Of a DNA stretch of 42,754 nucleotides, positions 1 to 36,155 are shown piece after piece. A model generated the notes under the pieces. It ran no database searches. It saw nothing but the letters and a program-made list of their open reading frames with translations, and had not been told where the DNA came from. Source of the stretch: Perkinsus olseni (lineage: Eukaryota); assembly GCA_013115125.1 (NCBI GenBank), contig JABANN010000286.1:1-42754 (forward strand). Reading direction: 5' to 3'. Numbering within the stretch: the stretch's first letter is position 1; the number at the start of each line of letters is the position of its first letter. The position numbers and the translations under genes were made by a program.

Positions 1-411
1 TTGAACAAGATTTGTGCATTCTCGTTCCTGGGAACGTTCCTGAAACTCAGGAACGGTTTATTGAACAGCCCGTTAGATTCTCTAACGGAGAGCGCCGGCC
101 TATCCTGATGCATGTAAATGTCGGTATCAGAAAATCGATGCTCATATTGGTGGCATTGTGTTCGAGTATCTTACGTTGAGCATTGCAAGATACGCACGAG
201 GTCAAGTTGGCGCCCTTCTGACAGTCCAACCACTATAATACTAGTTTCTGGCTGCGGTTAATACAGATTCATCAGAGTGCTACGCCGACGTCCGCGGACG
301 TTTTTGAACTTTTTAATTGGACTGCTCGCGATTTGTGTGTTTGTTAGAGTAAAGTTCGTTGCGTAGCGCTCTGCCAAATATCAGTTACAATACGGAAATT
401 GGAAGATTCAT
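1..411 (-). CDS. Possible 5' part of a divergently transcribed spliced gene (hypothetical protein, runs off the window start)
   Basis: By-eye splicing gives ATG at 411 (MNLPIS), then KLVIIVVGLSEGRQLDL, a GTGCGT...CATCAG intron, and an open exon DRPALSVRESNGLFNKPFLSFRNVPRNENAQILF to base 1. No homology recognised. Confidence 0.3.
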
Positions 412-470
412 GAAAGTTAACCTTTTCTGTCCCGTGCCATCATAACCAAAGATACTTGTAGCTTTTCACC

Positions 471-3400
471 ATGGCTAACTATTATTCCCTCGATATCGCG
501 CAACCCGACCCAAGGAAGGAGTTCATCGTGGAGGCCTGCATGGCGCTGCTGGGCATCTCTCAGAAGGACAGAGGAATCTTCAGGTCAGAGCGTGCGACTG
601 TCAAGCGTGCAAGATACGGTTAGGTCGAATCCTGAGTCGAACGGCGAGCTGGAGAAGTTCTTGGAGGACCTCAATACGAAGGTGAGAATTCTTGTAGGCG
701 AATCTGCCGGCTGGTGGTGAAAGAAAATCGGAAAAAATCTCTGCCGAAGCGGCTCGTTTTGAGATGAACTTCTGTCGAGTCTTCACGAACGTTCGATGAT
801 ATTTTCCTTGTTCGAATCGTGGCCTAACTGTCGAAGACGACATAAAGACATATTACGGAGAAGGGGTACGCAAGTACAAAAGACTGCTGTACCCGTGCAT
901 TCTCTGGTTCACCACCAGGATCAGCCATAAGAGAGACGACATTAGCAGTGGTTCCTGGTAACAATAGCATGCTCGTCGTTTTGGTGTCTCGCAACTGACC
1001 AAAAACTGCGAGGCTCAGGCCATCTCGCAGATTCTCTTCGCGTATGAGCAAGCTCACGAGACGGGGATCTCTGGGGAGTTCCGTAATGTTTGTCTTTCGA
1101 CAAGATACGAGGATATCCCCTCAAGGCTTGGAGGTACCACTGGACCTACGGATAAGTTAATCGATCGATTCATTCAGTCGCGGTTGTCTTTATCAAAATC
1201 GGCGTTGGTGAGCTTGCGGCAGAGACGATGAGCGGTAGAGTCGTCACTACCACTGTGGACGTTACCCACCCGATGAGGGGACTGCGGGGTGTCTTGAGAG
1301 AGGCTTACTCGAAGGTCGGTTGGTGGGAACCTTTTAAAGATTCTAATTTGGAATCTTGTACTCGAGAGGGGACCTACTCGCGATCGACTGTGGTCGAGTT
1401 TGGATACTACCGTGACGATATTCTAGAGAATATAAAAGTGAAATATCTTTTGAGCTTGAGCTCACCCTGGGTGAAAAAACATCAACATTATTACGAAGAC
1501 AAGTCAATTTTTTTACGTTCGGAAAATTCAGTAACGTCGAATTTTTGGCGCCAAAGCGTCCCTGTTTGCTCATTTCAGTAGATATTTATCGACGCGTGAA
1601 ATTATTTCGTGTTTTCTTTTTAGTTACTCGGCGACTCGGAAGTTGGCAGGTCGATGTGAGAATCTTCCGGCTGCGGGGGTGAGGTCCATTTTGGTGCTTT
1701 CAGCGAGGAGTTGGTATCTGGGCTTGAAGCTTGTATTAGTCGAGGCTCATTGAGTGAGAACTTCGACGAGGATAATATTGACAATGTAAATGGCGTTGAG
1801 GAAACACAAGAGTGCAAGTGGCGCTTCTTTGGGTAGATAGTAATTCCTTACGATGAGCTCGCTTCCTGGACGCAGCACAAGGAAGCTGGGAAGGAGAGCG
1901 GAGAACGGGTAGCCGGGGGCGTATCCAAGGTCGATCCTTGCTTTACGCGAGTCAATGGATATGCTCGGCCTTGCATGATACAGAATAGTCGTGCTCCGCT
2001 GGGATCGAGAAATGCGGAGGGATACATTTCGGCCGGCATTTTTCCAGGATTCTCAGAACCTGGAAAGTACCCCCGCTGATGCGACCGTGGACGATCGGTG
2101 CTTCTTTGTGTTGAATTCTGAGTGGAAGTTGGCTAAGCAGAGAGTATTCTATTAGACCGTCCGCCGGAGGGCCTCCGGTGATTCCGACCAGAGCAGGAAA
2201 TCCGGGCCTTGGCAGTAAATAGACTTCCCGCGATGGAGTTGAACTCTTAGTGTTGGCGAAAAATTTGTCGGAAAACGTTCCATCGCTTCCTCGTGTGTGC
2301 TTTCATCTCGTATCAAGTGGGTATGTTGGCTTCCAGGATTTGGTGGATTTCAGGTATCAAGAATTGCTAAGGAGCTTTCAGAGTGTCGCTTGGCGGCCCC
2401 GATGCTCTTCGATAATTCGTCCCCACAGGAGAGAGGTATCAGGCTGGGAGAGTATCTTGAACTCGCGCGAGGTATTTGGGAAATTCTTGTGGGTCTCTTC
2501 GTGATGGCATCATTTCATATGACCGGGTAATTTCAGAGTTATCTGTTTTCGGAATGTTCTACAGCTATGCCGCAAATAAAGCGATATAATCGTTCATCTG
2601 CGGGTGTATTTGTCCGGGTTTGTGACGTTTTAACCCGGGTAAATCTATCACATATCCCAGTAAATAATATTGCGATACTATACTTTACTGGAATAATTGA
2701 GTTCTCATCGTCCGGCGATGAGTGGAAAAGATATCCGAAAGGCACCCAACCAGGCACGGCATATCCAAGGTCGATCATAGCTCATCACGGATTTTCACCG
2801 CATTTTGGCTACCTCGTTTCATCATGTCAGGACAATCGTCTTTAGCGACTCTTCACGCCGCGATCGACGGAGTGCTGCCGCTGTTGGAGAATCTTAGTTT
2901 GGATGACAAGATCAACCCGGCTTATCCAGTGAAGAGGATGAAACGGTAAGATACTCGGTAAAACTAGATTGACCTTTCTGTTGCTCAGGCTGTTGGTGGT
3001 CATATCTTATAAGATATGTGCTGAGGTATCCTGGCATTTGGCAGAGGTGAAAGATATTTTCCAGCTGAAAGATAAGGGAGCATCCATGGTTGTTAGGGAG
3101 TCTCTAAAAGTGAACTACCAGAAACGTATTTGGTCGAACCATTTGTTGAAGTCAGGTTCTGGAGAGGTGGGTACAGTGTGTTCAAGATGGGCAGTTGCTG
3201 CCGGAGTCTCCTGTGGAGTCGACCAAGGGGGTAGGATGCTGGTGGTGGTTGTTGTGTTATTGTTCGGCTGTGTGGTCTAGTGGTATGATTCTCGCTTAGG
3301 GTGCGAGAGGTTCCGAGTTCAATAGTCGGCACAGCCCTTATCAGATCCTCGCCTCTCCCCTGCGTCTGGCGGACAGGATACGCTGCGTTAACTCCCTACA

Positions 3401-34194: not shown

Positions 34195-34685
34195 AGTGGT
34201 AGGAAGGACCATTCCAGTAGGGCGAGTACTGCTGCTTTTCGTGTCAGGCTAGTCGCCCTTCGAGACCGTTCACAATGGTCATCTTTGCTGTGATTACAAC
34301 GAGTCCTCTGTAGTCGTTGTGGCTGAGGTATCAGCTCACAACAATGCTACATCACTATTATCAATACCACTCCTGCTGCCCCTTCTCCTGCTGCTGCTAC
34401 TTTTGTCTATGTCAACAGTACTTAGCCGAATGGCGACCTGTCAGTAGTCGATGGCGAGTTGATTACGCCTCTATCAATTTAAAGATTGTCGAACCATCTC
34501 CCGATCTTGTGTTGTGATCCTGGAGGCCAACGGTGCGTTTCAAGATGAGGTGCGCGCTGTGAAGATCCCCTTCGACCGTTTCGGAAATCGTGGCGATTTC
34601 TTTTGGGCGAGCGCATTTTGCATCGGGGTGGTTTGTGGTCGTTAACTCCTCATTCCTTTACAGTTTTACGACTCCCACTCCCTCC

Positions 34686-35607
34686 ATGGTTACCAAGTTC
34701 CGACGTGTGCAGAAGAGCGCGAACGCCGCCGCTCCAGAGGACGGCGTTACAGAGGTCCGCGTGACCTCGATGGGTCGCGTCAATGGGTTCGTCGACGAGG
34801 CCATCGAGTACCTGGTGGGCTCGGAGAAGCATGCTGCTACGAAGGAGATCAGAATCATGGCCAGAGGTGGGGTATCTTGAGGTTCACTTCGGCTTTTGCA
34901 GTGATGGTTAGGTACCGCGATCGCCAAGGCTGTGATCGTCTCGGAGATTCTGAGTCGCAGGATCCCGTGCCTCTCCCAAGAGGTAAGATTCCCTGGTCCC
35001 CACCGCAGCGTATTTTTGTTGTCTTTAGGTTGAGCTCGGGTCGAGTGATGTCGAGGACGTCTTCGAGCCCGTCGGCGAGCACGATGAAGAGGTCGGCAAT
35101 GTGACGCAAGTGCGAATTGTTCCGTCGCTTGTTGTGACTCTGAGAGCCGACAAGAAAATTAAAGAAGAGGACATCAGAGAGCATCAGTTTATCAAGTGCG
35201 TTGGTGCTTCTTGTCGACTTGTAAACGGAGCTTGCCGCACTGTAGGCGTCCTGTGCTCGCTGATCCTCCTGCCTACCGCTCCGGACGCCCCACTGGCCGA
35301 CCCGGGTATCGTTTCCGTCCGAAGAACAGAAAGAACCCGTCGAGCACCAAGGCTGCTGGCGGAACGACTCCGGTGAAGGTCGTTGCTGGTGAGTCGCTGC
35401 GCTTTCTTCTCCTAGGTGAGATTGTTGTGCACAGATTCGACGACCGAGGATGATTCAGCAGTAAAGAAACAACGTCGTGATAGACGCCGTAGAAACAGAG
35501 GCAAGAAGGAGCAAGGTGAGGTTTTATGATCGCCTAGGGTCGACCTTGGATACTTTTCGTCAGATGCGGGAAAAGTTAACGCTGAGGCTCCACAGGTCGG
35601 GGCGTAG
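34686..35607 (+). CDS. Alba-domain RNA/DNA-binding protein 2 (Rpp25/Mdp2-like)
   Basis: MVTKFRRVQK; EVRVTSMGRVNGFVDEAI; IRIMARG|TAIAKAVIVSEILSRRIP; VELGSSDVEDVFEP; QVRIVPSLVVTL; Arg-rich tail. Stop at 35605-35607. Confidence 0.85.
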
Positions 35608-36155
35608 ATGATGTTTTGATTTGACGAGACTTCGTTCCTCGTTGGGGAAGTTGGCATATATCAGAACCTATTGATATTTTTTTTACTTCTTCATCTTCTT
35701 ATTGATTATGGTGCCCTATTATGTGTGCAGCGTAGTAGTAGGTGCCGAGTCGCCACAGTGTCGTGGAACAACGACTAAATCAAGAATAGATGAGAACATG
35801 TGGTGTAGAAGGATTCTGATAGGACTCAACTTCCATTGCAAATGAGGAGATAAGAGTCGAAGTGTTGGGTTCAAAGTGGAGTGGAGGTGCTCTGTTGAAT
35901 AAGCGCTCGCCCGCCTGATCGATTGCGGATTTGAGATTCCCGAGCACAATTTGAGGCTAGTGATGTGATTTGTGTCGAGATAGTCATCGCAAGTGTCGTA
36001 TCTGCAAGCGGCATGGACTCTAAGGGGTGGTATCTTTAGGTTGACCGCGAAAGATACATAAGAGGTCGGGTGGTTGTGTATGTAGATCTTTTGAACTATC
36101 CCAGCCACGTGGTAGTATTCCTAAGATTATTCAATAATTGTTGTTGTAACGATCA

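Follow-up and report, generated by a model that had tools for sequence, protein, structure and literature searches.

Introners, reportedly the intron-generating transposons of Micromonas, Aureococcus, dinoflagellates and other lineages, measure tens to hundreds of bp, carry target-site duplications and account for a whole intron. Bacterial REP/REPIN sequences are likewise dispersed, as imperfect palindromes of 20-40 nt that occupy extragenic DNA and depend on a dedicated RAYT transposase for their movement. Here, we analyzed a 42,754-nt stretch of DNA from the shellfish parasite Perkinsus olseni (contig JABANN010000286.1, assembly GCA_013115125.1; the window) in which a 28-bp inverted repeat, GTATCTT-N14-AAGATAC, recurs in introns, exons and upstream of genes. 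Our preferred reading, to which we assign a probability of about 40%, is that the palindrome forms the core of a dispersed ~40-bp introner-like cassette serving as a 3' splice-site module. Overall, the data point to an undescribed sequence signal tied to Perkinsus splicing or intron gain.

Like introners, the cassette consists of dispersed similar sequences that may make up introns of unrelated genes, has inverted ends and brings a predicted splice site with it. In contrast, it spans only 28-40 bp, shows no duplication and forms only part of an intron, and its arm word is also selected in exons. The likeness to REP/REPIN sequences lies in size (20-40 nt), imperfect palindromy, occurrence in both orientations and lack of target duplications, whereas the Perkinsus copies occupy eukaryotic introns and exons and no RAYT-like transposase gene was seen in the window. 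With miniature inverted-repeat transposable elements (MITEs), the cassette shares inverted ends, absence of coding capacity, high copy number, and eroded and half copies, but it has no target-site duplications, falls below the usual MITE size range and has no parent element in the window. Because the duplication that defines introners and MITEs was not found, we describe the cassette as introner-like in its working and not as a member of either family.

Together with introners in general, two other eukaryotic systems are the nearest described counterparts. Amoebophrya, which like Perkinsus is an early-branching relative of the dinoflagellates, possesses introner elements (Farhat et al. 2021, PMC7789003) that resemble the Perkinsus copies in several respects: short intronic inverted repeats able to form a hairpin, a transposon-like spread across many introns without a transposase gene, and no family-wide MITE classification that fits. 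The Amoebophrya repeats, as described there, are 8-20 nt long and sit at both intron ends, direct repeats of 3-5 nt lie over the exon borders, and most of these introns lack GT-AG. Conversely, the Perkinsus introns are GT-AG (the aligner used permitted only GT-AG or GC-AG), the arms are 7 nt long, separated by 13-14 nt and confined to the 3' portion of the intron, flanking direct repeats are lacking, and copies also occur in exons and upstream of genes. In fungi of the Hypoxylaceae, internally symmetrical stwintrons and their sister introns (Fekete et al. 2021, PMC8469720) are similar to the cassette in that they proliferate, possess symmetrical inverted repeats and lack flanking duplications, which argues against classical cut-and-paste transposition. 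Their repeats, in the accessible parts of that paper, are 45-55 nt long and terminal, the introns are nested and much longer, and no exon or upstream copies are reported.

GTATCTT (33 copies) and AAGATAC (24 copies) are the two most frequent 7-mers on the + strand of the window. When up to two mismatches were allowed, GTATCTT-N14-AAGATAC matched seven times against 0.16 expected, a number reached in 0 of 100 shuffles; three matches have perfect arms (166-193, 21066-21093 and 36030-36057) and four carry two mismatches each (5698-5725, 14454-14481, 18486-18513 and 19032-19059). At the same tolerance, a scan of spacers from 4 to 40 found five copies at 13 and seven at 14, compared with 0-4 at each other spacer, while simulated sequence gave means of 0.06-0.25 copies per spacer with a maximum of 2. 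Spacers 13 and 14 combined hold 12 copies against about 0.3 expected, and the distance from arm start to arm start is 20-21 bp, about two helical turns. Besides this peak, no other arrangement of the two 7-mers in the window showed a preferred distance, and long-range periodic spacing of half-sites was not found there. Fourteen copies are full, nine of them in introns (seven in the 3' part), two in coding exons and three upstream of start codons.

The dispersed inverted repeat noted in a preliminary description of this DNA is thereby confirmed within the window, and its copies at a 14-nt spacer exceed the number in shuffled sequence. Seven of the N14 copies listed there recur at up to two mismatches, whereas two others hold only with qualification: 13351-13378 has three mismatches to the consensus, its arms (GAATCT/AGATTC) remaining complementary through a double change, and 18101-18128 is eroded, with two mismatches in each arm and the spacer word kept. 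The variants described are all present (8975; 17189-17217, spacer 15; 19754-19780 and 22117-22143, both spacer 13; 29325-29351, spacer 13 with perfect arms), and so are the half copies, at 611, 13703, 20005, 21883 and 33727. Beyond the window, GTATCTTAGGTYGA-N7-AAGATAC gave 0 matches in a collection of genome contigs and 0 in one of viral contigs. Literature on the two 7-mers was confined to primer lists, and we found no published account of such a Perkinsus element in a search without subscription journals or supplementary files.

Similarity between copies extends beyond the arms. The full unit is ~40 nt long and polarised (GTATCTT-AGGTYGA-N7-AAGATAC-N5-AGGTC), and in the four perfect-arm copies sequence likeness ends at its edges. 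AGGTYGA, with at most one mismatch, directly follows GTATCTT in 11 of 57 left arms on both strands (0.49 expected), and AGGTY stands at +5 after the right arm in 7 of 57 (0.14 expected). Twenty aligned copies yielded the consensus GAGTATCTTAGGTTGAAGCT.G.AAGATAC..AA.A.GTC.GG, with AGGT at +5 in 10 of the 20 by eye, and the 14-mer GTATCTTAGGTYGA matched 32 times with at most three mismatches (4.5 expected). These counts bear out an oriented spacer consensus, and the GTATCTTAGGTYGA matches its use in both orientations, both of which had been proposed previously; within the dynein gene described below, nine half-units (at most two mismatches) are sense and four antisense. Inverted ends are present as 7-nt arms generally and as 14-nt ends in an 80-bp copy at 13629-13708. 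As the spacer is polarised and yet points either way within a host gene, the copies appear to have multiplied as DNA and not to have arisen one by one as RNA signals.

The position of the copies relative to splice sites was assessed on a model of the gene that holds most of them. A Pfam scan of 76 open reading frames (ORFs), chosen from the 146 of at least 90 aa in the window, placed dynein heavy-chain domains in order on the + strand at 3300-20446. The closest relatives of one exon are heavy chains of cytoplasmic dynein-2, the intraflagellar-transport (IFT) dynein, at 44-45% identity. One exon has 94% identity to a partial P. olseni record annotated as cytoplasmic dynein 2 heavy chain 1, which assigns the DNA to P. 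olseni or a very close relative. The gene was modeled with a purpose-written spliced protein-to-DNA aligner using eight full-length dynein-2 proteins as queries; it spans bases 470-22200 and has about 70 introns, mostly 43-62 nt (71-75 per alignment). Fifty introns are backed by at least four of the eight alignments, and among them 39 are at most 130 nt long, typically 43-62 nt. All 50 fit GT-AG or GC-AG, no other kinds having been permitted. The P. olseni protein aligned with 255 of 265 residues identical and confirmed four supported introns, including 8948-8995. Uncertain parts of the model are the initial 3 kb of the gene and a number of long "introns". The sense strand of the gene (window 1-22000) has a steady, strong G>C skew of +0.12 to +0.27 that fades past the gene end. 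At dynein-2 loci of other eukaryotes the motif was not evident (0-3 copies each at nine loci in a metagenome scan, all at most 54% identical).

The element supplies acceptors of homology-predicted introns in three ways. The acceptor AG coincides with the AG of a right-arm-like hexamer (8/50 introns; strict AGATAC, 3/50; ~0.6 expected at equal base frequencies), with the +5 AG (intron 19943-20018) or with CTTAG/, the slash marking the junction (intron 12237-12289). On this gene model, the reported overlap of copies with 3' splice sites was upheld, and for intron 8948-8995 the P. olseni protein record confirms it. Between positions -28 and -4 of the 39 short introns the leading 5-mers were ATCTT (8 introns), TATCT (7), TTTTT (7) and GTATC (6), and the + strand reads GTATCTT...AAGATAC whichever way the spacer points. 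Cassettes occur in dynein introns and also in introns of two Alba-like paralogs further along the window, with likeness spanning 28-40 nt per intron. The cassette accounts for most of introns 5677-5721, 18460-18521 and 19028-19086. Its removal would leave five introns with 11-27 nt, compared with 43 nt for the shortest intron of the dynein gene and 39 nt for the lower end of the published Perkinsus range (PMC3101222).

Two 5' splice-site roles were rejected. None of the 50 supported introns begins with GTATCTT, which excludes a general 5' splice site. The U12-type 5' splice site has the consensus GTATCCTT, whereas the motif is found mainly in exons and towards the 3' ends of introns and not at intron 5' ends.

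For the cassette we infer both mobility and a role in splicing, along the following lines. Within transcribed DNA, it would supply a complete intron 3' end. Owing to the palindromic arms, GUAUCUU ... AAG/AUAC is read on both strands, and either orientation would offer the same four elements: a left arm rich in U, a loop sequence resembling a branch site (UUGAY or CUAAG), a right arm whose AG, ~14 nt 3' of the left arm, can act as acceptor, and a second AG/GU five bases further on. Since Perkinsus introns hardly exceed the cassette in length, a cassette plus a nearby GT would be nearly a whole intron, and the unit may thus behave as an introner-like, orientation-free building block of mini-introns. 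Copies also stand 5' of genes: three of the four perfect-arm copies (166, 36030 and, on the - strand, 29325) lie about 280, 90 and 310 nt, respectively, from start codons, each pointing the same way with respect to the gene that it precedes. No such copy stands at two other gene starts of the window. Speculatively, these upstream copies may be spliced-leader acceptors, and the lone AAGATAC at 449-455 could be another.

The bare arm word is also enriched inside coding sequence. In 61 exon blocks (11,355 nt) backed by at least five of the eight alignments, GTATCTT occurs 11 times against 1.18 expected and AAGATAC 9 times against 1.47, counts that none of 500 synonymous-codon shuffles reached. 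Enrichment of the 7-mers in conserved exons is thus 6-9-fold and arises through synonymous codon choice: five of seven Tyr-Leu pairs use TATCTT, although CTT makes up only 14% of Leu codons, and four of six Arg-Tyr pairs use AGATAC. The GTATCTT/AAGATAC family ranks first among exon 6-mers and 7-mers, which no other intron word does, and the half-sites use all three frames and both orientations. Twenty exon half-sites lie in conserved sequence where the dynein alignment mostly has no, or at most a few, inserted codons, so that they do not represent insertions. The motif occurs 1.76 times per kb in dynein exons, 2.5 times per kb in the 50 supported introns with long ones counted, and 0.54 times per kb elsewhere in the window, where the intron-dense Alba-like genes are again motif-rich. 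The copy previously placed in a dynein exon (14454) is indeed coding, as is 10289-10319 with its 17-nt spacer; both are in frame and gap-free relative to other dyneins, which rules out an internal eliminated sequence of the ciliate type, a ~28-bp insert excised from the DNA. The same exons strongly under-represent CTTA (10 versus 29 in synonymous shuffles), GCTTA and CTTAA, and over-represent ATCTT.

The 7-mer arm is also a selected word in its own right, kept in exons by codon choice, and some factor, either a protein or a small RNA acting on DNA or pre-mRNA, presumably reads it. The cassette reading leaves this exon word unexplained, and the exon word calls for a reader of the 7-mer. The main rival takes that reader to be a DNA-binding protein, possibly of the AP2 type, that would bind the lone half-site as a monomer and the repeat spaced by 13-14 nt as a dimer, with overlap of acceptors being incidental. 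Selection would maintain its sites in promoters and along the whole length of particular genes. The candidate AP2-type family is large in perkinsids and apicomplexans; perkinsid AP2 domains are reportedly mentioned in one publication. Such a protein would account for half-sites that are equally enriched in both orientations and all frames by purely synonymous choice (11 versus 1.18; 9 versus 1.47), for the first rank of the word family among exon words, for the preferred Tyr-Leu and Arg-Tyr spellings, for the sharp spacing of two helical turns and for perfect copies 90-310 nt 5' of start codons. It does not explain the conserved, polarised spacer and its +5 AGGTC, the use of the right arm as acceptor AG in 8 of 50 introns, or introns made mostly of cassette. 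We consider this rival fairly unlikely, albeit the strongest of the alternatives. The site for a dimeric protein suggested in the preliminary description fares similarly, in that the synonymous enrichment would favor a binding word (or one read in RNA) and the coincidence with acceptors stays unexplained.

A broader proposal, which we hold only tentatively and regard as somewhat improbable, runs as follows. GTATCTT/AAGATAC would be a strand-symmetric word, selected even at synonymous sites of conserved exons and densest in intron-rich genes, and pairs of it facing each other 13-14 nt apart would flag where mini-introns end and, in addition, the 5' regions of genes. A putative protein or small-RNA reader would then link recognition of DNA or pre-mRNA with acceptor choice and intron birth, amounting to a cis-code without a described counterpart.

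Several observations weigh against the cassette reading. All results come from one 42.7-kb window, and all splice sites were deduced from protein homology. No target-site duplications flank the four perfect-arm copies or any others, no longer or protein-coding relative of the cassette is present in the window, and the Pfam scan of the 76 ORFs found no transposase domain; both the duplications and a longer element with a transposase had been named previously as features to look for. Nor does AGGTYGA qualify as a 7-bp target-site duplication: by eye, its two occurrences share no more than 3-7 of their 7 bases, and the agreement is poor in perfect copies. Half-sites are not preferred places of intron insertion: a search of 300 junction-spanning windows found one, versus 1.7 expected, which rules out a split insertion target. 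The common polarity of the three upstream copies has a 1-in-4 chance of arising at random. Among three paralogous Alba-like introns only one contains a half-unit and another has GCATCTT at the same place, suggesting that copies can also arise or decay by point mutation. Mobility cannot account for the 20 conserved-exon half-sites, and the RNA hairpin is weak, with folding energies of -5.6 to -9.4 kcal/mol (z of -0.5 to -2.05 versus shuffles), which rules out a notably stable structure. The earlier interpretation as an introner or micro-MITE consequently stands in part. It gains a ~40-nt oriented consensus that is used in either orientation, forms the bulk of several 45-62 nt introns and supplies acceptor AGs, and it is weakened by the lack of duplications and of a parent element in the window and by the 20 exon half-sites that are not insertions. 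A "footprint" in the sense of an excision scar was not supported.

In a quite improbable alternative, the copies are neutral debris of a tiny foldback or MITE-like transposon that accumulates in introns and spacers, where it is harmless; no factor would read them, and they would overlap splice sites only through occasional co-option of an AG-rich insert. A family with a common consensus in both orientations, the range of perfect, eroded and half copies together with the 80-bp version and its 14-nt inverted ends (13629-13708), and the other short repeat families in the same introns would all fit this origin. However, target-site duplications are lacking, the element at 28-40 bp is smaller than MITEs, neutral debris cannot explain exon half-sites kept by codon choice, and introns of 45-62 nt that are mostly cassette cannot predate it.

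A pure pre-mRNA hairpin appears slightly less probable still. Here, the 7-bp stem would join or mask the branch region and acceptor and thereby tune 3' splice-site choice, with lone half-sites pairing at a distance. Changes in the arms often preserve pairing in the sense RNA (about six G-U wobbles versus two that preserve only antisense pairing, by hand count), copy 13351 has a compensating double change, and the stem spans the acceptor in several introns. On the other hand, folding is no better than in shuffled sequence, the strong G>C skew of the sense strand would by itself produce such a wobble bias, and complementary half-sites have no preferred distance besides 20-21 nt. A hairpin would furthermore not need a conserved, polarised loop, and three perfect copies lie outside coding regions.

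Descent from a highly expressed small RNA gene copied into the genome, with the spliced leader and tRNAs as the two candidates, is close to refuted. The arm with AGGTC loosely resembles the leader ...ATCTTGGCTCAAG and, equally loosely, the anticodon stem and adjoining variable loop of a tRNA. By eye, the published Perkinsus leader ACCGTAGCCATCTTGGCTCAAG (PMC3101222) has ATCTT..GG.T.AAG in common with the left half of the element. The dynein introns also contain tRNA-half-like pieces and two tRNA-Pro genes, and P. marinus has unusually many tRNA genes (PMC3706591). On the other side, the element has no T-loop or second T-stem strand, leader relics would be neither palindromic nor antisense in introns, the last 15 nt of the leader (at most three mismatches) matched twice against 1.5 expected and never at an element, and ARAGORN and Rfam placed tRNAs only at 3266, 9561, 25066 and 25210, never at a copy.

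Table 1 Copies, variants and half-units of the element in the window (a slash within letters marks a predicted splice junction).
Feature	Position	Strand	Context
Perfect-arm cassette, GTATCTT-ACGTTGA-N7-AAGATAC-N5-AGGTC	166..210	+	Sense, ~280 nt 5' of dynein ATG 472
Lone AAGATAC	449..455	+	6 nt 5' of TTGTAG and 16 nt 5' of dynein ATG
Antisense cassette	5688..5725	-	34 of 45 nt of intron 5677-5721; acceptor is right-arm AG (CAG/ATTC)
Sense cassette	8975..9002	+	3' end of 48-nt intron 8948-8995; acceptor at spacer/right-arm boundary; right arm degenerate (GAAAGAC) and protein-coding
Perfect arms, 17-nt spacer	10289..10319		Coding exon, gap-free alignment to other dyneins
Half-unit GTATCTTAG/GTCGC	12281..12294	+	Straddles 3' splice site of intron 12237-12289 (CTTAG/)
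Variant GAATCTT-AGGTTGAAGCTTGC-TAGATTC	13351..13378	+	Compensating arm change; in predicted intron 13266-13417
80-bp version, ends are 14-nt inverted half-units GTATCATAGGTTGA ... TCGACCTTAGATAC	13629..13708		Intron 13589-13704; acceptor is TAG/ATAC of right end
GTATCCA-AGGTCGA subtype	14454..14481	+	Coding exon
Copy, 15-nt spacer	17189..17217	+	21 nt 5' of acceptor of intron 17024-17238
Eroded copy	18101..18128	-	Intron 18072-18158
Antisense cassette including upstream TCAACCT-N5	18474..18513	-	40 of 62 nt of intron 18460-18521
Sense cassette, AGGTCGA at +5	19032..19071	+	Begins at position 5 of intron 19028-19086/89
Sense copy, 13-nt spacer	19754..19780	+	3' end of intron 19729-19776; acceptor is right-arm AG (GCAG/ATGC)
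Half-unit TCAACCTAAGATAC-N5-AG/GTT	19998..20023	-	+5 AG is acceptor of intron 19943-20018
Perfect-arm cassette	21054..21093	-	Antisense to dynein; probable intron ~21036/40-21124
Perfect half-unit	21876..21889	-	13 nt 5' of acceptor of intron 21853-21902
Copy, 13-nt spacer	22117..22143	+	Predicted-intron acceptor directly before GATAC (TTGCAG/GATAC)
Perfect-arm cassette	29308..29351	-	Sense on - strand, ~310 nt 5' of - strand ATG 29020
Degenerate copy GTGTCTT-AGGTTGAAGCGTGC-TGATCAC	33727..33754	+	Intron of first Alba-like paralog
Half-unit GTATCCTAGGTTGA	33876..33889	+	Apparent 5' end of 34-nt intron (by eye)
Perfect-arm cassette	36030..36074	+	Sense, ~90 nt 5' of ATG 36147 of third Alba-like paralog
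GTATCTT-N13-CAG/ACAC	37338..37364		3' end of intron of third Alba-like paralog (by eye)

Other features of the window were observed alongside the element. Three tandem Alba-like paralogs occupy 33300-37700, two exon halves matching positions 2-35 and 37-64 of the Alba profile with E values of 0.014-0.039 each. All three have a common intron position at which the intron sequences are unrelated, and paralogs 2 and 3 share a further intron position that paralog 1 lacks. In the third gene, five 30-nt tandem repeats (36237-36416) encode TEKKEVASPV, and one intron is filled by five tandem repeats of ~35 nt (36810-36962).

The dynein introns look as if assembled from a small vocabulary of modules. 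Pieces of ~27 nt resembling tRNA 3' halves (T-arm and variable region), mostly antisense, form much of several 51-56 nt introns (5441-5467, 18355-18381, 20240-20266, 11378, 11763 and 30365), and intron 19216-19306 resembles a whole degenerate tRNA. Two tRNA-Pro genes, 87% alike, lie on the sense strand inside long dynein introns (3266-3337, AGG; 9561-9632, CGG), and two tRNA-like sequences at 25066-25122 and 25210-25264, 89% alike and 139 nt apart, score at or just below the Rfam tRNA threshold. In P. marinus, tRNA genes are reportedly very numerous and serve as targets of Dada transposons (PMC3706591). A second dispersed intron word, AATTTCGTGGCGCG(C/T)G, has about nine copies in both orientations (6382, 8493 in reverse complement, 10710, 12249, 14549, 18752 in reverse complement, 18865 and 19466, with an exon look-alike at 7320) and forms the core of several 43-44 nt introns. 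The palindrome AATCGATCGCGTGATCGATT recurs in introns at 5131-5157, 7126-7149, 20427-20447 and 35907-35933; its exon copy at 8109-8132 (22/24 match) lies in a conserved exon, encodes ISITRSI and may be due to chance, the word being CGAT-rich. Two further short families, CTTAGCGGAGCGAAGC (7635-7658, 9117-9137, 13277-13297 and 17787-17810) and CAGCTAGAGGTGTCAG (7399-7430, 11935-11967 and 18599-18631), occur in both orientations, with one CAGCTAGAGGTGTCAG copy in an exon.

Some of the most striking examples of recent intron gain come from relatives of the dinoflagellates, to which Perkinsus is an intron-rich sister lineage. If the cassette reading is true, a 40-bp intron tail that works in either orientation would be the smallest introner-like unit known to us and would show that mini-introns can be assembled in modular fashion, and gene annotation in Perkinsus could take the cassette as an acceptor signal. 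More surprising is that conserved exons show codon-level selection of the arm word, as its putative reader would constrain coding sequence across long genes.

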